A DNA stretch of 64,000 nt from an uncultured virus (IMG/VR IMGVR_UViG_3300017747_004150) (taxonomy: Duplodnaviria; Heunggongvirae; Uroviricota; Caudoviricetes), in IMG/VR virus record IMGVR_UViG_3300017747_004150; one strand, given 5' to 3'. The position numbers and the translations under genes were made by a program. This document shows positions 1 to 30,602 of the stretch, one piece after another. The notes beneath the pieces were generated by a model. The model was not told the origin of the DNA, did not search any database, and saw only the letters and a list, made by a program, of their open reading frames with translations. The stretch's first letter is position 1. Every line of letters starts with the position of its first letter.

Positions 1-3000
1 ATCTACTCTGCTTTGCCCCCTGCTGGCTTGCTGGGTTGTTTCTCTGGTTCCCCAATCAAACAAAAATCCATTGGCATACCTCAGATTGAAGTGTGCCTTA
101 AATGGTGTGGCTGAAAGAAAAACAACTTTGGTGTTTTCTGCTGCCCTCTTTGCTCTTTCCTCAAGAGCGGGAAGGGCTTCTTTTTTCTTAGCTTCTACAT
201 CTATCAAGGTTTTTTCCAGCTTTTTCTGCTCTTCATCAAGTTGAGCATACTTCATATCCGTTGTGTCGTCAAGATTTTTGATTTTATCAATGGATCGAAT
301 TTCTTCGTTTAATGCCTTTGCTTTAATCCACAATGGATGCCGGGACGTTATTCTGGATAGTGCTGTGCTTGCGTTTTTATTTGAAAACTCATAGTGAGCA
401 CTTGTGGTGGAAGATGTTTCACCAGCCTTACTTTCCATAAGCCGGTGTGCCTCATCATACACGACCAAATCAAAATCTCTTTTTGCAAGTTCATCGTTTG
501 CCCGGAAGTTGGCATAGGTAGTAATGACCACTCCTTTGCCGCCTGTTTTTGTGTCAGAAAGTGGAGTTATGTTTAACCCAAGTGCTTTACCATCTTCTGC
601 CCAATCGGTTACTTTTGGTTGTGATGGAACCACAATCAAAATATTGTCTTTCCCCTCTTTGACGAATCGCTTAATAATTCCAAGCCCGGTAAAGGTTTTG
701 CCGGTACCCGTTCCATTGGTGAACAGCATTCCCTTACCCATCCCTCTTTCCGGTGTTTTGTGCTCTGGATCAAAAAATCTTTGTTCGGCTTTAAGCACAT
801 CCTCCTGCTGCTCTGGAAGGAGATATGGTAGTGTTGCCCGAATGTTTGCCAGGTCGCCTCGTTTGACCGGGATGCCCTCTGCTTTTTTCTGCTCAACCAG
901 TTTTAGCTTTTGCTTGTCTGCAAAGCTGCCTGATACTTGTTGAGTTGATTCATCAAAGTCTTTACCTCCATTGGCGTCAGTGCCGGTATTTCCCTTTGTG
1001 CCATCAACGCTGTTTCCTCTGCCGTCAAAAGTTCCGGCATTTGAGCCCTCATTCCTGGGTCCGGATTCTGATTCAGAAAGCTGCTGATTGCCTTGTTCTC
1101 CAATAGCAGGGGTAAAAATATTGAGACTGCTCTCCCGACTCTCGGACTGCTGGTTCTCTGTGTTACCTCCTCCCTGAGATCCATTTCCATTTTTTCCGCT
1201 TCCTGTTCGTTGGCCTTGAACATTTTCTTCATTAGCGGATGAAGTATTTTCTGCGACATTGCTATTGCGTTCGCCGTTTCCTGATCGATCAGATACATCT
1301 TCTTCTTGTTTTTGTAATTGAAACTTTCGTACTGTTTTGACGTCATCCATTTCATCAAGAACATTGTCCTCAACGCTTCGCATGTTTGACAGGTATGCTT
1401 CTTTGATTGCGTTTAACATCTGGTCGGAAAGCGTGCCCAGCCGATACTCAACGTCTGCCGCAATGTCCTCCAGCTTATACACTCCCTTTTGAATGTACTT
1501 GGCAACCGTTTTGGCAACCGCTGCAATGATGGCTGGATCTGCTGGATTTGAAAATGCTTTGCCGCCAATCAATTTATCTAGGTCGGCCCAATCTTTATCC
1601 AGTTCAGCATTCAGGTTTTTAAGCTTGTCTTTTACATCTGCTTTTCTGCGATCGCGCTTTTCGCCGCGGGACTCTTTCTCAGATGCTTCTGCTTTGTTTA
1701 AGCCCAACTCTTTCCTTAATGCCGCCTCTTGTTCTGGAGTCAAATTTTTTAATTTGTCCGCCAAGTTTTGTGCTTTGTTGTTCAGCAGCTTGTCCAACTC
1801 TTTTTGATCTCGATTGACATCAGCTTTTTCTGCCGCAATGTCCTCTTTATATCGATCAACTAATGAATCGTGTTCGTCTTGAACATCTTGCAATTCTCCT
1901 TTTAGATCTTCAATCTTTTGTTGCCTTTCTTCTTTTGAAAGGTTTTTATTGTCCCGTGCTGCAGCCATCTCGGTTTTAATCCGATCCTTTTCAGCCTTTA
2001 GGTTTCCTTCCTCGGTTTTGATTTCGTCCTGGAGATCCTGAATCTTTGAATTTGAAGCAGCAATATTATCCTCAAGAACCTTCTTCCTTGAGTCTTCCTT
2101 TTTTTCAGTATCCAACTCCAGCTGAGAGGTCTTTTTACCTTTCAGTTTTTCCAGTTGGTTTTCAGCTTTCTCCAACTCCCGTTTTGCAAGTTCAACCGCT
2201 GTTTCGGCTTCTTTTACCTTCCGGGTTAAATCCGGATTGCCCCTTTCAGCAACAATCCCCAATGGAGTTGCCTCGCCAAGAGGGATGTTCATGGTTTGCC
2301 CCAAATTTGCTTTTGCAGAAGCCAGCTTTTTTTCTGCATCGGCAACCACCGACTTCGCTTTTTTAACAATGTCTTCAGCGGCTTTCTGCTCCGGGCTTAC
2401 TTCAGACTTTTCTTCTGATTTTTCTTTTGCTCCATCAGCCGGTTTGCTGCTTTGATTTTCAACATCTCCCTGGCCTTCTGTTCCTTTGTCAAATTCTGCT
2501 TTTGCATTTTCGTATTCTTTTTTTTCTGTTTCACTTAAAGACTCAAACCAATTATCCCAATCAGATGCCTCCTTTTCAATTTCTTCATCTGATAATTCCA
2601 TGTTATCGATTTCATCGTATTCTGCTTCCAGCTTCATTGCTTCTGAAATTGAAAAAGCACCTGCAGGAATCCCCTTGCCGGGCCCGACTGAAAAAGTAAG
2701 TTCGTCAAGATCCCATAATCGATTTGCTTCTTTAATTACGGCTTTGGCCGACTCCGTATCGGTTTTACCGGCACGTATATCGGCCAGCCCTTTTGTCATT
2801 GTAGCTCTATCAATCTGGACATTTGGACGTGGACTCCAAATGTCTCCATTCCAATCAAGATTCCCAGAATCAATCAGCTTTTTTGCTTTGGTAATCTGAT
2901 CGTCGGTCGCTACAATTTCTGGTTCCCGTCGTGTTGCAATTCGTCTGATCGGTTTATTATTCTGATCAAACACCTGGATCTTACCTTTACCCTTTCGGCC

Positions 3001-6000
3001 AACACTATACCCAAGCTTTGATGCTGCTTTGGTAATGATGGAAAGTGCATCTCCTTTGCGATTTGATGCCGCTGCATTGTAGTCCTGAACCTTGTTGAGA
3101 AGGGAGTTGTGTGCATCCTTATTCTCAGTTCCGGCGTTTTCTGCGACTATGGGTTTCTGTGTTTGCAGATCAGTGGGGGTAAACGCTATTTGAGAATTAT
3201 CAAAAACCGCAACATAGGTTTGGTCTTTAATGTCATTTTCATCTACGTTTTTAAAGACAATGCCATCGTAACCTCTTTTCTTTAACTCTTTTCTAAACTT
3301 TTCCGAATCTTCTTTTGTCGCTTTATATGACGGGACTCCGGTAATTTCCTGAAACAGTCCCATATACTCTTTTTCAAAATTATCCCATTCAATATTAAGC
3401 GGGTTTTTTACAGTTAAGTTAGCTGCATACACCTGGCCTTTTTTGGGTGGTTCGTTTAAATTTTCTAAATAACTAGAAAATTTATCCGCACTAACCGGGT
3501 CAGTTGTAAACCAAGTTGCAAACGAATCCGCTCCGCGATGTTTAACTTTTTCTCCAAAATTCGTAATTCCTTTTGTTGGAGATCCGTGATAAAAAGTAAT
3601 TGGATTGTTTTTGTCATCCATTAATACTCCCTGTTTTTTTTGCTGTGCAATCAGGTCGCTTATCGGCTTGTCGTACCTATCGTAAATTTCCTTCCGCTTC
3701 GCCTTGTCATTCATGTCGGGCATTGCATCGTACTCCGCTTGTTCTTTCGCTCGTAGGTCAGTTATCTGATCGGCTAGTGAAGCTGGGGTGGGAGCGGCTT
3801 GTTGTGTTGATTTGTACACATTCCCGTTGTAATCCTTTATGGTTGTCTGTGGGTACTTATCAGCCAATTCTTGTGCAAATGGCGTTAGCCCAACATTGAG
3901 AATGACCTCAATTTCGGATGGGTCAACTTTGCCTTTCGAACCACCATCTATACTATTAGAAGCAATAAAGAATTTGCCAGTTGTCCAAGGGCCACCACCT
4001 TTAGCACCTATCTCCCCAAACCATCCCTCCATTTTGCCAGTAGACAAAATATTGTTTAAAACGTCAAGCGACCCCTCTTCATTCAGCCTTGTAGACCCGT
4101 GACCATATTTTTTATCAGTAAGGCGGTCAAGGCCATTCATCGTAATGCCTCCGGTCATATCGTAAATAGGATTGCCATCCATATCCAGAATCTTGCCTTC
4201 GTTCAGCAACCTAAATTGCTTGCCTATTATTTTGCCGACCTCAGTTTGCGGGCTTGATACTACCTCGGTAGCCCCTTGCTGTGCTGGTGCGTCGTACTTA
4301 GCGTTAATCTCATCAACCTGATTTCTTTGAGCAGCTTCTATTGTGGGCAAAAAATCTGATCCAATTAAATTTAACAAATTTGCCCTATGATTCCCATCAT
4401 TTATGATAATGGTGTCGTCTGGCATTATGCTAATCTCTATTGGGTCTTTTTTTACATAGTCTTGTATTTTTTGAACTAAATCTGGATTATTTTTTATGTA
4501 ATCAATTAAAGGTTTAACCTTTTCTCCATTAAACAAATCTTCGGGAATTCCTAAATTTAAATTAGTATTTATAAAATTTACTAGGTCTTTCAATTGGGTT
4601 GAAGTAAACCCTTGTGTTCCTATTGACCCATTCGGTCTTCTAACCTCTTCTATGGGGACATTTCTTACAACACTATCAAGTTCTTGTTTTCGTCGTTTCT
4701 CAATCTCCTCTACCTCCGCTTGCTGAGTTTGCTCCACTTGTGGTAATGGAACGGGAGTGGATTGTGCTTCGCTAGTGGCAGCGGCCCCACCTTCAGTAGA
4801 TGCGGGAACCACTCCGGCATCAGTAACAACATTTTCTGATCCTGTTGGACTGACCGCTCCTGCGTCCACATTAGGGCTGCCAGTTCCTGCGTTAGTGTTG
4901 TCATTGGTTTGCGGGAATGTAATGGTTGGCGTTGTAATTACTCTGTTTCCATTGGAATCGGTGTAAGCATTTTTCTTAAAGTCTTCAGTAAATTCTGCAT
5001 TACTATTAAACTCTCCATTTTTCTTTTTCTGAATAATTTGAAGCGCACTTGGATTGTCCTCCCACTCCCCTGTTTCTTCATTTAATATTTGAGGGATTAA
5101 TTCAAATGTTTCAGACCCACGGCTTGAAACTATTTTCTTCCCTATAATAGTTCTGGTTTCGGCTCCTTCGTGCTGAATAATGGTTCCTTCCGGCAATGAA
5201 TCGAGAAACTCAAATGCTTCTTGGCCCGTTACCTTTTGCCCTCTTTCGTTGAAAAAACTAAGCCTTTCTTGTGCTGATTCTTGCGTTTGTTGCGAAGCTT
5301 GCTGTGCTGTATTTGTTTGTTGAGCAACCGGTGCGGCCGGCGGAAGAGCCATCAACTCATATGATCCGGCTTTTCCAATTGCATCTGCACTGGTCAGTTC
5401 AGTAATCGATCCGTCTTGCTCTTGAACCACAAATATCCGGTAGCCATCATCAAAGAATTTGATGGCATCACGCGGGCTTTCCATTTTAACGCCCTCATTT
5501 TCCATCCGGGAAACTTCTTCATCACCTTCGCTAAATGAACTGCCCCAGCCTTCTTTGTCTTCCACAATGTCTGCATCGTCGGCCATTGCCTCTCTTTGTG
5601 CATTAACCGTTTCCATGATCTTCTCACGGTTCAAGTCAAACATCAGTTTGTAACGCTGACCAAAAGATGCTGGATCTTTTCCGTCCAAAACATCTTCCAC
5701 CATCCCGGCAAACCTTTCTTCTGACAACTGCTGATTGTTGTTCATGAAGTCCCGCATCTCGTCATCCGATATCTCTACCTCTTCAGATACTGGCTGGTTA
5801 ACCGGAGCCACTGGTTCTGTCACCGGTGCAGCTTCTGGTTTCGGCGGAGGCGCCGTACTTGTTCCTCTAAGATTGATAGGATTTTCAACATCTGGAGTTG
5901 CGTTTGTCATACCTCGGTTGCCAAGGTGTTGCTCAAGTGTTTTAAGCGTTTGATCCCGAAACTCGCTCTCTGGTTGTTCTTGAACATGCAAGTATGCGTC

Positions 6001-7848
6001 TTGCAAAACACTGGTTGACGGTAGTTTGATTTTGCTTATCTCGGCATCAAACTGTGCAGCAATGTCGTTTGCTTTTGCTGGGCTCTTGGCAATGGCTTCG
6101 ATCTTTTGCCTTTGCAAATCATTCCTGGCATCCAATGCTGATGCAATTACTACCGCATTAAACCCTTTGTCTCCAGCAGCTTTTTCTCCGGCACCACCTC
6201 TTGCCGTTAGCCGTATATAAGCATCAACCGGATTCTTTGCGGTTCTTACAATTTTGCCGGCGGCAATAAGTCCGCCAGCGCCAACAAAACCACCAACAAA
6301 ACTTTCCGCCAGCCTTTTTTGACCTTCATCTGATGTCACTGCTTCTGGAAGTTTTTCCACAAATCTTTCGACAGATCCCGATCCCGAAGCCTGTTCGCTG
6401 GCCATAGCTGTAAGTTCTTGTGCCGTTTCAATTGCACCTTCATGAGCGCCTTTTGCGGTAAGTCCTGTTACGGTGCCTATAAATCTACTCCATGCTTTAT
6501 TTCCTGTTTGCTTTATAACCCAATCCCGGACGGCCCTGTATCCGCCCTTTGACGCAATAGTGTTTCCTACGACCTTGGATCCAAACTTCTCCAGAACCGC
6601 CTGTATTCCTGCTGAAACAATAGGAATAAATTCTGCGTCATCACCAGCTTCAATTACCTGCTCTGGAGTTCTGTTTGTTTCTTTTGCTTTTTCTTTTACT
6701 CCATTTACATACCCATCTGCCAAAGTCTGAGCAAACATTGAGTATCCGCCAGTAAATGCAGCCGGTAGCATTGATGTTACTGCCTGACCAATACTGTACA
6801 GTGTTGCTTCCGGAAGTCGTTTGTATTCGCCGCTTTTAAACGCATCGATAAGACTTGTCTGAATGTTGTATTCTTTTAGATCGTTTTGGAACTTTTTATT
6901 GATCACCTCAAGTTCAGCACCAATTCTTTTTTTGACTTTTTGCTCGTTTTCTTCTGCTGCTTTTTTTCTGTCGCCAAAAGAAAACAGTGTTCGTTGTTTT
7001 GCCCCCAGGTATGCTTCGCCTAGTAAAATTTGATCATACGCATTGTTGGCTAATTTTCCGATGGCAGCAGGTAGGTCGGAAAACAACATTTTGTACCAAG
7101 GTCGATCTTCGTCTCTTTTTTGTTGGGCGCTTTGGTAAGCTAAACCTTGCTTTTCTTTTGGAATACCGGTTACCAAATCTCGCATTGCTTGATTTAATCC
7201 AGTTCCCTTATCCGACATCATTACCCCGGTCGACTGATACTGTCCGGTTGGATCTTCATTGACATTTCTTCCCTTGTCCTCAAATTCTTCTCCACCGGCT
7301 GTCATACCTTGAGGCATGTAAAATGGCTTGCCGTTTACCATTTCAGCTTTAAACTCTCCGGTCTGCGGCTCTCCGGTGAGTTCAATTCGTTGTGGGCCGG
7401 CATCTGCTTTTGGCGCCGGAACCTGTCCGCGTGTTTTCTCCTGTATGGCATCAAGAACAGTTTTGCGTTTGCCAAACTGATTGAATACACTTGGCTGTCC
7501 GAATTCTGGTCCTGTTGCCGCTGGGGTATCTGTTACTACTGGCTGCGGCTCTTCTTTTTGAACAGCTGCTTGTGGAATAGACTCTCCAGTCAAAAAGGTT
7601 TTTTGAAAAGTTTCAACATCATCCGGAAGCCCATCAACCATTTCAGATGCTCGTAGTTCAAATAAAACTCCGCTGGCTTGCGTCCTTCCGCGGCCAACAT
7701 ACTCTTTTAACTTTTCAGGAGTCCAAGATCCATACCGATCTGGCTGATATTCTTTTAGAATACCAAGAAGTTTTGCTGGACGGTCGTTGCCAGGAGCCTT
7801 GTCTTGTGACAATTCCAGTTGTTCTGCTTCAGGTAGGAAATCTGCCAT
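1..7848 (-). CDS. Giant polyvalent/virion-ejected protein (>2616 aa, runs off the window start): membrane-like N-terminal region, ParB-like domain, two ADP-ribosyltransferase-like domains, SF2 helicase
   Basis: Manually read frame from ATG at 7848 has no stop down to base 1. Motifs: GMLFTNGTGTGKT (Walker A, ~690-740), VVYDEAH (~445-465), VVFLSATPF (~100-126), FYHGSP...WFTT...KNPL...GYDGIVF...VFDNSQI (3185-3625), IINDGNHR (~4384-4407), EGAIETAQE and FVGGFVGAGG (6250-6450). Confidence 0.92.
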   Translation of the reverse strand, partial: MADFLPEAEQLELSQDKAPGNDRPAKLLGILKEYQPDRYGSWTPEKLKEYVGRGRTQASGVLFELRASEMVDGLPDDVETFQKTFLTGESIPQAAVQKEEPQPVVTDTPAATGPEFGQPSVFNQFGKRKTVLDAIQEKTRGQVPAPKADAGPQRIELTGEPQTGEFKAEMVNGKPFYMPQGMTAGGEEFEDKGRNVNEDPTGQYQSTGVMMSDKGTGLNQAMRDLVTGIPKEKQGLAYQSAQQKRDEDRPWYKMLFSDLPAAIGKLANNAYDQILLGEAYLGAKQRTLFSFGDRKKAAEENEQKVKKRIGAELEVINKKFQNDLKEYNIQTSLIDAFKSGEYKRLPEATLYSIGQAVTSMLPAAFTGGYSMFAQTLADGYVNGVKEKAKETNRTPEQVIEAGDDAEFIPIVSAGIQAVLEKFGSKVVGNTIASKGGYRAVRDWVIKQTGNKAWSRFIGTVTGLTAKGAHEGAIETAQELTAMASEQASGSGSVERFVEKLPEAVTSDEGQKRLAESFVGGFVGAGGLIAAGKIVRTAKNPVDAYIRLTARGGAGEKAAGDKGFNAVVIASALDARNDLQRQKIEAIAKSPAKANDIAAQFDAEISKIKLPSTSVLQDAYLHVQEQPESEFRDQTLKTLEQHLGNRGMTNATPDVENPINLRGTSTAPPPKPEAAPVTEPVAPVNQPVSEEVEISDDEMRDFMNNNQQLSEERFAGMVEDVLDGKDPASFGQRYKLMFDLNREKIMETVNAQREAMADDADIVEDKEGWGSSFSEGDEEVSRMENEGVKMESPRDAIKFFDDGYRIFVVQEQDGSITELTSADAIGKAGSYELMALPPAAPVAQQTNTAQQASQQTQESAQERLSFFNERGQKVTGQEAFEFLDSLPEGTIIQHEGAETRTIIGKKIVSSRGSETFELIPQILNEETGEWEDNPSALQIIQKKKNGEFNSNAEFTEDFKKNAYTDSNGNRVITTPTITFPQTNDNTNAGTGSPNVDAGAVSPTGSENVVTDAGVVPASTEGGAAATSEAQSTPVPLPQVEQTQQAEVEEIEKRRKQELDSVVRNVPIEEVRRPNGSIGTQGFTSTQLKDLVNFINTNLNLGIPEDLFNGEKVKPLIDYIKNNPDLVQKIQDYVKKDPIEISIMPDDTIIINDGNHRANLLNLIGSDFLPTIEAAQRNQVDEINAKYDAPAQQGATEVVSSPQTEVGKIIGKQFRLLNEGKILDMDGNPIYDMTGGITMNGLDRLTDKKYGHGSTRLNEEGSLDVLNNILSTGKMEGWFGEIGAKGGGPWTTGKFFIASNSIDGGSKGKVDPSEIEVILNVGLTPFAQELADKYPQTTIKDYNGNVYKSTQQAAPTPASLADQITDLRAKEQAEYDAMPDMNDKAKRKEIYDRYDKPISDLIAQQKKQGVLMDDKNNPITFYHGSPTKGITNFGEKVKHRGADSFATWFTTDPVSADKFSSYLENLNEPPKKGQVYAANLTVKNPLNIEWDNFEKEYMGLFQEITGVPSYKATKEDSEKFRKELKKRGYDGIVFKNVDENDIKDQTYVAVFDNSQIAFTPTDLQTQKPIVAENAGTENKDAHNSLLNKVQDYNAAASNRKGDALSIITKAASKLGYSVGRKGKGKIQVFDQNNKPIRRIATRREPEIVATDDQITKAKKLIDSGNLDWNGDIWSPRPNVQIDRATMTKGLADIRAGKTDTESAKAVIKEANRLWDLDELTFSVGPGKGIPAGAFSISEAMKLEAEYDEIDNMELSDEEIEKEASDWDNWFESLSETEKKEYENAKAEFDKGTEGQGDVENQSSKPADGAKEKSEEKSEVSPEQKAAEDIVKKAKSVVADAEKKLASAKANLGQTMNIPLGEATPLGIVAERGNPDLTRKVKEAETAVELAKRELEKAENQLEKLKGKKTSQLELDTEKKEDSRKKVLEDNIAASNSKIQDLQDEIKTEEGNLKAEKDRIKTEMAAARDNKNLSKEERQQKIEDLKGELQDVQDEHDSLVDRYKEDIAAEKADVNRDQKELDKLLNNKAQNLADKLKNLTPEQEAALRKELGLNKAEASEKESRGEKRDRRKADVKDKLKNLNAELDKDWADLDKLIGGKAFSNPADPAIIAAVAKTVAKYIQKGVYKLEDIAADVEYRLGTLSDQMLNAIKEAYLSNMRSVEDNVLDEMDDVKTVRKFQLQKQEEDVSDRSGNGERNSNVAENTSSANEENVQGQRTGSGKNGNGSQGGGNTENQQSESRESSLNIFTPAIGEQGNQQLSESESGPRNEGSNAGTFDGRGNSVDGTKGNTGTDANGGKDFDESTQQVSGSFADKQKLKLVEQKKAEGIPVKRGDLANIRATLPYLLPEQQEDVLKAEQRFFDPEHKTPERGMGKGMLFTNGTGTGKTFTGLGIIKRFVKEGKDNILIVVPSQPKVTDWAEDGKALGLNITPLSDTKTGGKGVVITTYANFRANDELAKRDFDLVVYDEAHRLMESKAGETSSTTSAHYEFSNKNASTALSRITSRHPLWIKAKALNEEIRSIDKIKNLDDTTDMKYAQLDEEQKKLEKTLIDVEAKKKEALPALEERAKRAAENTKVVFLSATPFKAHFNLRYANGFLFDWGTRETTQQASRGQSRVD
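903..1298 (-). CDS. Putative nested (overprinted) 131-aa gene in the +1 frame of the giant ORF
   Basis: ATG at 1298 follows an A-rich leader (AATTACAAAAACAAGAAGAAG-ATG). The product looks helical and globular, whereas the host frame here is a disordered G/S/N/E linker. Confidence 0.55.
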   Translation of the reverse strand: MYLIDQETANAIAMSQKILHPLMKKMFKANEQEAEKMEMDLREEVTQRTSSPRVGRAVSIFLPLLLENKAISSFLNQNPDPGMRAQMPELLTAEETALMAQREIPALTPMEVKTLMNQLNKYQAALQTSKS

Positions 7849-7856
7849 AGGTATTT

Positions 7857-9746
7857 TTAATAACGAGTTTTTCGTTTAGGAGTAGTATTTGTTGGCATTG
7901 GAGTCGGATTGCTTGGCACACTTCCAACAAATTGATCAAAATTAAGTTCTCTTTGTTTTTTGTTGAGTTCTTCAACCGTCTGCATAAATGTAGGATTGTA
8001 TTTCATAGCAGCGGCTCTTGCCGTCCCTGCCTGTGGAATTGCAACGTAAATTTTGCCTGATTTCCCCGGTCCTTTGAAAAACAAATTGAGAGCCTGGCTT
8101 GCTGGAGTGGTTCCTTCGGATGGCACAACTGGTATTCCATCTTCTGTTTTTCCTTGAAGTTCAGAAACGTCAAGTTCCATAAATCCTTCTGGTTTTACCC
8201 TTCCTGCAACAACAAAATCTGCTGCTTCGTTTACTGGAACATATTTTCCATTAGGCCCCAGTACAACTGGTTTATATCCTTTTTTCTTAGCAATTTCAAT
8301 TGCTTTATTTATTTTATCAGCATCAAACTGACCGCCTTCCATGAAGCCAGTGGCTTGGAATTCGGTTGGATCTGTTTTAATTCCTGTTTCTTTTGAAAAA
8401 AAATCTTTGGCTATATAATGTGGTCTGTTATCGCCAGGCTTCATCACCATCAAACCACCTCCTCGAATAATGTTTTCGCTGGTAACCCGGTAGGTTTGGC
8501 CAACGCCTTGCTTAATGCCTGGGTTTTTTACTTTTTGAAGTTTCCCATCTACCATTACCATGATCTCTGGAGATCCTACAACAATGCCAGCGGCGTCTTC
8601 CTTGGTAAACGTGCCAGCAAAAGAGTTCTGTTTGCTTTTTGTTCTTCCGTCTGCACCTATTCGATTTTCTGGTTCCTGAAAAGCAGTTTTAGCAGCCTGA
8701 CGTATTTCTCGCTCTTTGTCGGTTAAGCTTCTTGCCTGTACAAATTTCTTGATTTGCTTTTCATCCATATTGGTCATAGCCCAGGATTCCGGGCGACCCA
8801 TCTCTGGCTCAATAAAGTATTTGTATTCAAGTTCGTCATTGGCATTTTGTCTAGCCACAGGATCTGTTATTTGCAAATTACTTGCCAGGTCTGCTTCGTA
8901 GGCTTTTAAAATTGCCGCATCTTTTAACCTTTCTTCTTTTTGAACTTTATACAATTGAGCAGTTCTTGGATCTGTCATTTGATCGCGATAAACACGTTCA
9001 CCAGCAAATCGTACGTCATATCCGGTAACACGTCCATTTTTGTCTTTGATTGGAGTAATGTCTTGGTATGGACCAACTTCTACTGATTGAGAACTTGAAA
9101 ACAATCCAGTTGGATCATCGGTAAAAGACATTTTACGACTTCTACCTTTTGTCCCTTCCTTAAATGTGCCGTATATTCCCGGCCTGTTTAACGCATGATA
9201 CTCCTGCCTTGCAGCTTCTCCAATAGATTGAATATCATCTGCACCAAGCTGTCCATCTTTTTCAATCTTTTCAATTGACTTTTTAGTAATTAGCTGATCC
9301 AATACTGCTCTATCATAGGCTTTTGGATAGGTTCCTTCTGTTTGTGTCAGGTAGTCTTCAACAGCTTTGTTTGCATTTGCAAGAGACTGTCCAACTCCTT
9401 TTAATCTTCCAGCCTTTTCATATACAGTTGCTTTACTGTTACGCAGCTGACCCGACCGGTAAAGATCTCCCACTTCTTTTAAATGTGGTTCGACAAATTT
9501 TGTATTGTATGGGTTTTGAAAACGACCCGTATCAGCAACATCAATTTTGAGCGCATCGTTGGCTTCTTTTTCCGCCTGGGCTGCCGCCTTGGCTTTCATT
9601 GCAGCCTGTGTCCGCATGTCCTGGACATCCAGATTAATGTTCCGGTTTCTTTCTCTTTCTGCAAGCCTTGCCGAATTGCTGGGCCCAAGAATTACCGAAT
9701 CACCGGTGTTTGAAACGCCTCTTGTGTTAAAAACCGAACCCTCCAT
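7857..9746 (-). CDS. Putative internal virion/ejection protein (629 aa)
   Basis: Long ORF between ring-like genes and the giant protein; Ala/Gln-rich helical N-terminus. Confidence 0.6.
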   Translation of the reverse strand: MEGSVFNTRGVSNTGDSVILGPSNSARLAERERNRNINLDVQDMRTQAAMKAKAAAQAEKEANDALKIDVADTGRFQNPYNTKFVEPHLKEVGDLYRSGQLRNSKATVYEKAGRLKGVGQSLANANKAVEDYLTQTEGTYPKAYDRAVLDQLITKKSIEKIEKDGQLGADDIQSIGEAARQEYHALNRPGIYGTFKEGTKGRSRKMSFTDDPTGLFSSSQSVEVGPYQDITPIKDKNGRVTGYDVRFAGERVYRDQMTDPRTAQLYKVQKEERLKDAAILKAYEADLASNLQITDPVARQNANDELEYKYFIEPEMGRPESWAMTNMDEKQIKKFVQARSLTDKEREIRQAAKTAFQEPENRIGADGRTKSKQNSFAGTFTKEDAAGIVVGSPEIMVMVDGKLQKVKNPGIKQGVGQTYRVTSENIIRGGGLMVMKPGDNRPHYIAKDFFSKETGIKTDPTEFQATGFMEGGQFDADKINKAIEIAKKKGYKPVVLGPNGKYVPVNEAADFVVAGRVKPEGFMELDVSELQGKTEDGIPVVPSEGTTPASQALNLFFKGPGKSGKIYVAIPQAGTARAAAMKYNPTFMQTVEELNKKQRELNFDQFVGSVPSNPTPMPTNTTPKRKTRY

Positions 9747-10474
9747 TAGTACATCACTTGTTTAAAGATTGAAAAAATATCCTGGCCAGAAAGACTAACC
9801 CGGTCTCGCATCCGCCCAATTTCAACATCCAAAAGACCTTTGTACCCAGACGCATCTGATTTTCTACTTGGCGTGTGCATGGATACCCAAAACATTAGGT
9901 GCATTTCCAGTGCAGTTTGAAAAAACGGATGCACAATCAGACCGTTTGAAATATCCAAGCAATCCGAAATGTATTCCATATAAAAGTTTGGTAATTTGAT
10001 GTTGGCATCCAAGACAATAACCCGGTTGGCAAAATCAATTCGAAAAGTAGGAACCGGAGGGCTTGGTCGCAAATACCGGCCATAGAAATTTTTGTATGGG
10101 TAAGAGTCTGCCAGAATTACTTCGTCAACCCGCTGCTGCTCCGCCGGCGTGTTTACCCGTGGATTTATGGCCAGGTTCTCGTTTAATCCGTTTGATACAA
10201 CCTGAGTGCCGGACTCATATCCTATTTTCAGCCAGCCAGCCATGTCTGGTGGAAATGGAATTGTTTTGTTTGAAGTGTTTGCCAGGTCATTACGAAACAC
10301 CCGAATAGTTCGGTACGTGTCCATTTTGAGATCACGAAGAAAGCTTTCGGCGTATTGATACAGCCGATCTTCGTCGTCTTCCGGAAATAGCTTCATCATC
10401 CGCATAACGCCATCCACAATTTGCTGAAGCGTTCTGGATGTGCTGTGATTCAGTTTTTCGTCGAATTGCTGCAT
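9746..10474 (-). CDS. Putative tail ring/tubular protein (crAss-like)
   Basis: 242 aa; TIPFPPDMAGWLKIG and FYMEYISD segments; TAATG coupling; third of three similar-sized genes after the terminase. Confidence 0.55.
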   Translation of the reverse strand: MQQFDEKLNHSTSRTLQQIVDGVMRMMKLFPEDDEDRLYQYAESFLRDLKMDTYRTIRVFRNDLANTSNKTIPFPPDMAGWLKIGYESGTQVVSNGLNENLAINPRVNTPAEQQRVDEVILADSYPYKNFYGRYLRPSPPVPTFRIDFANRVIVLDANIKLPNFYMEYISDCLDISNGLIVHPFFQTALEMHLMFWVSMHTPSRKSDASGYKGLLDVEIGRMRDRVSLSGQDIFSIFKQVMY

Positions 10475-11103
10475 TACGTGGTAGTGTTATGATCTGAGAT
10501 GTAGTCTTTTGGAACTTCCATGCGATACTGTTTCAAAACTTCGGAAATTACAACATACTCCAAAGCCTTGTCAATATTTTCTCCGTTGATAATAACGAGA
10601 TAGACATTGATGTCTTTGATTACAGGTTTTATGTCGTCGCACTGGCCACAAATAATAAGTTCCTTTCCAATCCAATCGTGAAAGTATGCTGCACCAACTT
10701 TGCGAAAAAGACTGCCTTTTGATCTGTACTTCCCGCCTTTTGATAATGCCGGTATTCGTTGTTCTCTGCCCATTACGTCAGTGTACGTCACCCGGTCAAT
10801 GCCGCGGTTTTTGGGGATGTCCATTGGCATTTCCGGAAGAATGGCTTTCAATGAAAACGCATCTGGTTCGTAAACAATCAATGGTAGTTTGTAAAATGGA
10901 ACCAAGTATTTGCTTGGCGTAATCCATTCTGCAGTCAGCCGGTATTGATCAAACATTTCCCGTTTACCCCAATAGGTAGCTGCGTTTTGAACGGCTATTT
11001 CAATTTCCTGTTTTGAGGGAATCGAATCAACGCTAATTCCCGAAATGATTCTCCAAATCAATTCGGCTACCTTGCTGATTTTTATGGATGCTACTGATGC
11101 CAT
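10474..11103 (-). CDS. Putative tail ring/adaptor protein
   Basis: 209 aa; LPEMPMDIPKNRGI segment; position in structural operon. Confidence 0.5.
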   Translation of the reverse strand: MASVASIKISKVAELIWRIISGISVDSIPSKQEIEIAVQNAATYWGKREMFDQYRLTAEWITPSKYLVPFYKLPLIVYEPDAFSLKAILPEMPMDIPKNRGIDRVTYTDVMGREQRIPALSKGGKYRSKGSLFRKVGAAYFHDWIGKELIICGQCDDIKPVIKDINVYLVIINGENIDKALEYVVISEVLKQYRMEVPKDYISDHNTTT

Positions 11104-29594: not shown

Positions 29595-30602
29595 TTATTC
29601 ACAAATATTGTAAGCGCTCATGCATCTTGAATCTTCGTCCGCAATCTTCTCCTCAAAAATTACTCCCTGACGATCCAGTTCAGCAAAGTAATTATCCACG
29701 TCCTGCATAGTAATAATCCGGTCACCCTTATGCGATCGGGTATTTCCAACGCCTTTCTTCAGATAGTCCGGACGAAAAAACGTACTCTTCACTTCATTCT
29801 CCAACGCAATAATCTCCTTGATCCGTTCCGGAAAATGCTCACGTATCAGCTTAATTTCACCATGATTGCACAACACACACGGAAAACAACCCACCCTGGA
29901 AAACCCCAGGTAATACAACGGGTTTGGTTTTTGACCATTGGCCAGTATGTAATTCAACACTTCCGCCCCAGTCCAGGAAATTACCGGTCGCAAAATATCA
30001 TCTGCATATTGCTTTCTCCATTCCAGCACTTCCGCCTTCCGATACGTGTAAAACTTCTTGTCCTCTTTCCCTAATGCCAGACGTGCTTTTACTTGAGCCA
30101 TCTGAGCCCTTTCTGTATCACTCAACGCCCTCTTTGCCTCAATCGATTCCAATCTTGCCAATGTCATTGAATTGGATTTGTATGGCTCAAAGTAGTATTT
30201 GAAGAAAGTACACTCCCGGTTTGCACTGGCACGATCAAAACTCTCATCATTCCGAATCCCCTGAATAATAATCAGCGATTCCTTCTGATCAAGAATAAAA
30301 TCAACCATCGGCTTTGATTTTAACTCCTCCGTACAAAACCGGGCCATCCGACTTGGGAACCTTTTCTTTCTTTTAACCAGATCAACCATGCCATTTTCAT
30401 CCAGCTGACTTTTTGCATGCGTTACCTTCACGCCCATCTCACCGCAAACATCCGTGATGTGTTTGTAGGTAACCGGATTCTCCCAGCCCGTATCACAGAA
30501 CACAGCCTCGATCTTATTCAACGCCACACCCATTTCCTTCACAACCCAGATCAATGATGCCTGGCTGTCTTTGCCTCCACTAAACGCTACTACTATTTTC
30601 AT
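29595..30602 (-). CDS. PAPS reductase family protein
   Basis: FSGGKDS, CDTGWE, CTEELK, GIRNDES and SRVGCFPC. Confidence 0.9.
   Translation of the reverse strand: MKIVVAFSGGKDSQASLIWVVKEMGVALNKIEAVFCDTGWENPVTYKHITDVCGEMGVKVTHAKSQLDENGMVDLVKRKKRFPSRMARFCTEELKSKPMVDFILDQKESLIIIQGIRNDESFDRASANRECTFFKYYFEPYKSNSMTLARLESIEAKRALSDTERAQMAQVKARLALGKEDKKFYTYRKAEVLEWRKQYADDILRPVISWTGAEVLNYILANGQKPNPLYYLGFSRVGCFPCVLCNHGEIKLIREHFPERIKEIIALENEVKSTFFRPDYLKKGVGNTRSHKGDRIITMQDVDNYFAELDRQGVIFEEKIADEDSRCMSAYNICE

Follow-up and report, generated by a model that had tools for sequence, protein, structure and literature searches.

The stretch of DNA analysed here (64,000 nucleotides, IMG/VR record IMGVR_UViG_3300017747_004150; hereafter the window) is a phage genome, with matches to a terminase large subunit, a DnaB-like helicase and virion proteins. 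In it a small open reading frame (ORF) lies wholly inside a giant gene, which raises the questions of whether this ORF is a gene at all, which of the two overlapping frames is under selection, and what the small product might do. The features concerned are as follows.

903..1298, minus strand: nested +1-frame gene of 131 aa, unnamed all-helical family (ORF, conservation, selection, AlphaFold model)
1..7848, minus strand: giant polyvalent/DarB-like gene of at least 2616 aa, running past the window edge (ORF and domain matches)
903..1299, minus strand: main-frame linker, G/S/A/D/R/E-rich (also G/S/N-rich), with no detectable amino-acid constraint (omega, alignment)
430..771, minus strand: first lobe of the SF2 helicase (Pfam ResIII/DEAD matches; Walker A TNGTGTGKT at 694-720)
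3187..3618, minus strand: ART-PolyVal domain (PF18760) within the giant gene product (59.4 bits; cut-off 31.2)

The earlier note on this DNA had placed a 131-aa gene inside the giant protein just before its helicase, and the layout bears this out. The minus-strand ORF runs from 1298 to 903 (131 codons; product MYLIDQETANAIAMSQKILHPLMKKMF...IFLPLLLENKAISSFL) in the +1 frame relative to the open-ended giant ORF (7848 to 1), and the helicase leader of the giant frame begins directly past its stop. Across the nested ORF the main frame reads DVSDRSGNGERNS...SGKNGNGSQGGGNT, the low-complexity linker that had been described. The nested frame is stop-free from 1412 (169 codons) and offers two upstream in-frame candidate starts, TTG at 1373 and ATG at 1364; relatives share the start at 1298 and not the upstream candidates. 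Judged from the window sequence by itself, the ORF exceeds chance only modestly, and its length alone is not remarkable. When the linker was recoded synonymously, 337 of 5000 recodings left the +1 frame stop-free (mean 2.0 stops), and when the whole giant gene was recoded in the same way, some +1 ATG ORF of at least 131 aa appeared in 102 of 1000 cases. Relatives of the locus were therefore decisive: the nested ORF is accepted as a real gene because of its conservation, its selection and its start signals in them.

The host gene belongs with the polyvalent/DarB-like giants, having at least 2616 aa, ART-PolyVal and ResIII domains above the Pfam cut-offs, and a match of its product to PHROG 10691 (E 6e-82). 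Its relatives have, after the helicase, an N6-adenine methylase-type domain with EPSAG and NPPF motifs. Any methylase domain of the window's giant protein would lie beyond the window edge, and the related locus L021, which is 64% identical over the helicase part of the window, has the methylase domain. At L021 the nested gene occupies 2590-2976, and the core of about 870 aa starts at 2988. The L021 core was predicted as helicase plus methylase with a pLDDT of 89.8, and its nearest structures were CSB/SNF2 motors and the Type ISP enzyme LlaBIII. Towards their N termini the giant proteins vary (InPase, ddrB-ParB, ART-PolyVal), while the nested gene and the helicase remain paired.

Conservation was examined with the helicase part or its motifs as queries and not with the nested sequence. 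All five viral loci found through the helicase part of the window carry a +1 ORF in the same place, starting MYLIDQ. Among 50,697 phage records the helicase query matched eight, representing six phages of Vibrio, Ruegeria, Klebsiella, Pseudomonas and Serratia, and a query with the nested protein significantly matched the same eight; a ninth match of the latter, to a Bacillus head-fibre gene, was disregarded (E 0.5). In the six phage records examined there is no separate feature for the nested gene, and the match falls inside the annotated giant CDS; the annotations examined omit the family because its gene is contained entirely in another. A scan with helicase motifs gave 111 confirmed loci, and among the 80 of them listed, 38 scored above 150 bits on the helicase profile; 37 of these 38 carried a +1 ORF of the family, as against none of the 42 weaker, more distant helicases. 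It should be pointed out that the 38-locus set includes near-duplicates and a few loci already met, and that the helicase profile was built from carriers. No operon with a non-overlapping small gene followed by the helicase was present among the 38.

Altogether, an ATG-started family ORF is nested in the +1 frame of an unbroken helicase ORF at 111 of 116 family loci, where, as in the window, the smaller ORF lies wholly within the larger on the same strand, in a shifted frame, and both are open. The 78 non-identical nested loci have ORFs of 119-161 aa. A profile search of 1.84 billion representatives returned 421 protein clusters (50% identity) at E of at most 0.001 and 146 at 1e-10, mostly of 120-140 aa and beginning at profile position 1, which adds a widespread unnamed protein family. 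In a sample of 401 genomes from one betaproteobacterial order there were three carriers, two of them known beforehand.

In a midpoint-rooted helicase tree without outgroup, the nested gene spans the sampled helicase subfamily. One member, L094 (about 2900-5500), is a stand-alone helicase of the same subfamily without linker or nested gene, on a long branch inside this tree; the nested gene was not found elsewhere in its record, which is 27% complete. This absence is possibly a secondary loss.

The two frames were then compared for constraint. Of 3003 pairs of loci, which are not independent of one another, 96% had a nested protein better conserved than the main-frame peptide, and in 94% the third nested codon position varied more than the second, which is the wobble position of the main frame. 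In 20 disjoint pairs the overlap-aware omega was 0.34 (CI 0.26-0.42) for the nested frame and 1.36 (1.12-1.61) for the main frame of the linker. We read the latter value as no detectable constraint, inflated by the stronger constraint on the second nested position, and not as positive selection. The nested product is thus conserved and under purifying selection, as expected of the true dual-coding region that had been proposed, and the homologous linkers, in which the earlier note had suggested looking for +1 stops or a lack of conservation, contain no +1 stops.

These data bear directly on the view that there is no gene here and that the ORF is a by-product of a conserved main-frame linker. 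The 337 stop-free recodings of the window linker are in keeping with such a view, as are 32 other +1 ATG ORFs of at least 119 aa found in 219,549 codons of these giant genes. However, the 32 are scattered and R/S/P-rich by eye, and the better conserved frame, the one with the low omega and the most variable third codon position, is the nested one. We consider a mere by-product scarcely credible, and the comparisons among relatives indicate that the region almost certainly holds a real gene hidden within a gene.

The term "overprinted", which the earlier note had applied to the small gene, calls for caution. The overlap itself is real, and the direction that the term implies is questionable: the nested frame is constrained and the linker is not detectably so, and at loci with a broken main frame (L010, L075; see below) the small gene is still there. 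De novo overprinting would lead one to expect the less constrained and more narrowly distributed frame inside, and the measured constraint runs the opposite way. The small gene is the constrained frame, and "overprinted" may be the wrong way round. The locus offers a clear example from nature of two genes that overlap at length on one strand with the constraint on the inner frame, and the overlap is kept in phages of very different hosts.

A gene of this kind also needs a start signal of its own, and the nested gene has one: a Shine-Dalgarno (SD) motif outside the clade of the window and leader adenines within it. The leader in the window is as follows.

1299..1311, minus strand: A-rich leader without SD, with A at -3, -6, -12 and -13 (leader comparison, PMC6847099)

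Outside the group of the window, which was defined by an N-terminal motif, an SD motif precedes 38 of 59 nested starts (4.6 expected), and within it one of 19 (2.0 expected), the expected counts being taken from other +1 ATGs of the same genes. Twenty-two SD-poor loci, hand-picked after the SD table had been seen and then checked on an independent helicase tree, formed one clade (22/22; FastTree support 0.908). A partial IQ-TREE tree without supports likewise recovered the 22-member clade and grouped L094 with L093. In the SD-poor clade, A stands at -3, -6, -12 and -13 in 21, 18, 21 and 22 of the 22 loci, where 8.6, 7.9, 8.9 and 7.4 were expected, and the nested start of the window has all four. 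The A-rich-leader ATG that had been noticed is the one at 1298, the start kept in relatives. Adenines at these leader positions promote initiation in Flavobacterium johnsoniae, as described in part of PMC6847099. An SD motif was present at one of the 39 window gene starts examined (one of the 39 mis-oriented). With the window genes lacking SD motifs as well, and the nested leader showing adenines of the Bacteroidota type, we infer that the host of this phage is a member of the Bacteroidota. Across phages of different hosts, the nested gene has been re-tuned to SD or non-SD initiation.

The product had been expected to be a folded helical protein, and the structure prediction agrees. AlphaFold2, run with 123 sequences, gave a model of eight helices with a pLDDT of 96.8 and a pTM of 0.89. 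Residues P63, L64, E67, A70, P88, E89 and E95 are conserved in at least 90% of the family. In Pfam, PHROGs, NCBIfam and PADLOC, no family was matched by more than two of the 123 members, and the best E value in a sequence search of the PDB was 0.15. With the model as query, Foldseek returned nothing at E of at most 0.001, and a VIA structure search gave no clear fold match (best Z 4.5, rmsd 4.4, 72 aligned). The predicted fold is possibly new. Members carry a mildly negative net charge (median -4.5, range -17 to +8), unlike DNA mimics of the Ocr/ArdA type, and a DNA-mimic reading was dropped on this ground. An Rz1-type o-spanin was likewise rejected, as the alignment columns show no conserved Cys or signal-like N-terminus and the host gene is a helicase-bearing giant. 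Some members are fused to other domains: P0014 to HTH_3, P0027 to Fib_succ_major, and P0128 in frame to a stretch that resembles the helicase leader by eye.

What the small protein does can be approached from its neighbours. In the mechanism that we propose, ribosomes would initiate internally on the same late mRNA, so that the small protein is made beside the giant virion protein. It would then be a dedicated chaperone or inhibitor that binds the helicase-methylase core, and the bound core would be kept soluble and inactive in the producing cell until packaging and injection into the next host. The main frame at the nested gene would serve only as an unstructured tether and would thus tolerate whatever the small gene dictates. 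This tether probably came about through read-through of the giant ORF into a small gene that already lay beside it. This partner role is suggested because the nested gene tracks the helicase-methylase core while everything upstream varies. It is in keeping with the prophages described below, whose helicase retains the nested gene after being split from the giant gene, with the lack of the nested gene in the 42 more distant helicases, and with the in-frame P0128 fusion; the helicase L094 and the orphan copies speak against it. Since physical overlap alone enforces co-occurrence, such linkage is weak evidence for partnership; and in an MI-APC analysis of the nested protein against the core (67 paired rows, effective 46), the top pairs were scattered, with z of at most 5.5 and no cluster. 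An inhibitor or chaperone, as the earlier note had suggested for the adjacent helicase, is still the hypothesis that we place first; we give a dedicated partner of the core a chance that falls somewhat short of even.

The +1 ORF might instead serve mainly to control translation of the giant mRNA or to recode it, through ribosome traffic, frameshift or re-initiation, with the peptide secondary. The ORF does end near the helicase start in most loci, yet between its stop and the helicase there are anything from about 3 to 465 bases, and this variation led us to drop a conserved frameshift or coupling at that stop. The residues conserved in at least 90% of members, the confident predicted fold and the retained orphan copies all speak against such a role, which we consider very improbable.

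Copies in which the arrangement has come apart bear on both role and origin. In Acinetobacter-type prophages the helicase is in a separate 1283-codon frame, split from the giant gene, and the nested gene lies inside the helicase ORF. In the copies of this type (L080, L102, L110-L114, L116, L125), in which helicase and methylase are split off together, the nested protein is divergent and has lost the PLLxE motif. At L010 the nested ORF is intact while the former main frame has nine stops, and at L006 and L012 the main frame breaks off in or just past the linker. L075, on a 103-kb Burkholderiales contig, is an orphan at 6001-6393 that has a GGAG leader of its own and is not followed by a helicase. 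No helicase of the cognate type was found in its genome, and for genome G002 the sole helicase match was an unrelated one of 29 bits. The L075 orphan is preceded by a 517-aa ORF without assignment and stands tail-to-tail with a type III restriction-like Res/Mod pair at 6457-10737 (motif label by eye).

Such copies would equally well fit a small protein with a job of its own, anti-defence or host-directed, whose position is historical, an operon neighbour having been swallowed by read-through. Orphans that stay intact as the main frame decays, the L075 copy with its own leader beside the Res/Mod-like pair, the absence of a cognate helicase from orphan genomes, and the HTH and Fib_succ_major fusions are all in line with an independent function. 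On the other hand, none of the cultured phages in the 50,697 phage records was found to have the family away from this helicase subfamily, its charge is not that of an Ocr/ArdA-type mimic, and no PADLOC family matched more than one of the 123 members. We judge an independent job to be unlikely.

The host gene resembles several known DarB-like giants: Parlo gp81, Skulduggery gp28, the ZX1 'PLxRFG protein', members of PHROG 10691/5143, P1 DarB and the Bcep22-type DarB. They share an SF2 helicase, an adenine methylase-type domain and variable polyvalent domains, and in annotated phages the gene follows virion genes. The helicase precedes the methylase in the subfamily of the window, and the order is reversed in P1, BcepIL02 and PEp14. 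Polyvalent proteins were reportedly the subject of a study by Iyer et al. in 2017, and Bcep22 is said to have been studied by Gill et al. in 2011. According to passages in PMC9024508 and PMC9144972, P1 DarB is packaged, injected and anti-restriction, and the JC1 DarB-like protein is virion-associated. For the subfamily of the window, packaging, injection and an anti-restriction function are putative.

The small protein might, alternatively, be an accessory for loading the whole giant protein into the capsid or for its ejection, an analogue and not a homologue of Ulx or DdrB, perhaps co-packaged. P1 DarB requires accessory proteins, and Ulx (17 kDa) 'aids DarB localization' (as worded in PMC9024508), while in Lessieviruses, according to the JC1 paper (PMC9144972), DdrA, DdrB, Hdf and Ulx have no known homologues. 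Ulx is of similar size (146 aa), adjoins darB and is, like the nested protein, tied to a DarB-type enzyme; the genes for Ulx, DdrA, DdrB and Hdf are separate and non-overlapping, unlike the nested gene. Homology to Ulx was rejected at the sensitivity of the comparison (hhalign probability 0.1, E 0.61), and this lack of similarity counts against the accessory reading. Two further giant genes likewise hide a small ORF before the enzyme core, which favours it.

L166:21296-21616, Lessievirus BcepIL02 gp70 (FJ937737): unannotated 107-aa +1 ORF with SD leader, about 300 codons before the methylase NPPF
L167:6779-7093, Erwinia phage PEp14 gp27 (JN585957): unannotated 105-aa +1 ORF with SD leader, about 300 codons before the methylase NPPF

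These ORFs share with the nested gene the +1 frame, an SD leader and a linker site upstream of the enzyme core, in giants that are methylase-first. At the sensitivity of the comparisons they were rejected as homologues of the nested family (HMM E 1.6 or worse, hhalign probability 0.1-0.2), and no comparable SD-led +1 ORF in P1 darB passed the filter. PEp14 gp27 has a further 76-aa +1 ORF at main codon 821. Against an accessory for the whole giant protein, the nested gene stays with the helicase once this is split from the virion-part gene, and a packaging factor would be useless to chromosomal orphans. Such an accessory seems to us rather unlikely. Returning to the partner of the core, one may combine the strands: the giants would have been assembled by read-through of an older partner gene, now embedded, translated separately and acting as inhibitor or chaperone, its fold possibly new; in other DarB-like lineages small genes without relation to it would have come to lie in the same place; and bacterial orphans would possibly neutralise the injected enzyme. 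Taken as a whole this is doubtful. If it were true, the linker would be a standard hiding place of the missing Dar accessory factors, and the nested protein is a testable candidate for those noted as missing from DarB-like podoviruses in part of PMC9144972.

As for precedent, lambda Rz/Rz1 is an embedded same-strand gene pair, and Rz1 inside Rz is also annotated in PEp14. There too, a small gene lies wholly within a larger one on the same strand, in a shifted frame and with its own initiation signal, and the two products act together. In contrast to Rz/Rz1, the host gene here encodes an enzyme-bearing protein of 3000-5000 aa, conservation lies with the inner frame, the predicted product is a soluble helical domain and no lipoprotein, and orphan copies exist. 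Rz1-in-Rz is described as an embedded class in a section of PMC9144972. Among the papers listed by our literature searches, which were read mainly where openly accessible, none describes a gene nested in giants of this kind, and the body text of the Parlo announcement (PMC6606913) mentions none in the DarB homologue. The nested gene apparently represents a new protein family within a new version of a known embedded-gene arrangement, with its function inferred. Linker deletions or domain swaps in these giant genes would unwittingly delete a second gene. Skulduggery on P. fluorescens SBW25 and Ruegeria phage 45A6 are cultured, tractable carriers.

Several minor observations concern the surroundings of the nested gene. 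A helical main-frame domain (about 1390-1555 of the window, minus strand; consensus in relatives by eye G..KF.DF...M....G..I.PYLK..Y) precedes the linker in many loci and sits after it in L054, L069 and L071. In P0102 and P0128 this domain is fused in frame to the nested family, and these fusions have no Pfam match. L006:1345-2253 is a mini-gene consisting only of this domain, the linker and the helicase leader. Among ten long window genes, the other +1 and +2 ATG ORFs of at least 40 aa are all of at most 90 aa, and none has all four leader adenines. One +1 ORF of 64 aa (4710-4904, minus strand) lies beneath another linker-like stretch of the giant protein (NDNTNAGTGSPNVDAG...) and has one of the four adenines only. 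Elsewhere in the window, a PAPS-reductase-like gene is located at 29595-30602 on the minus strand (phrog_424, E 3e-48).
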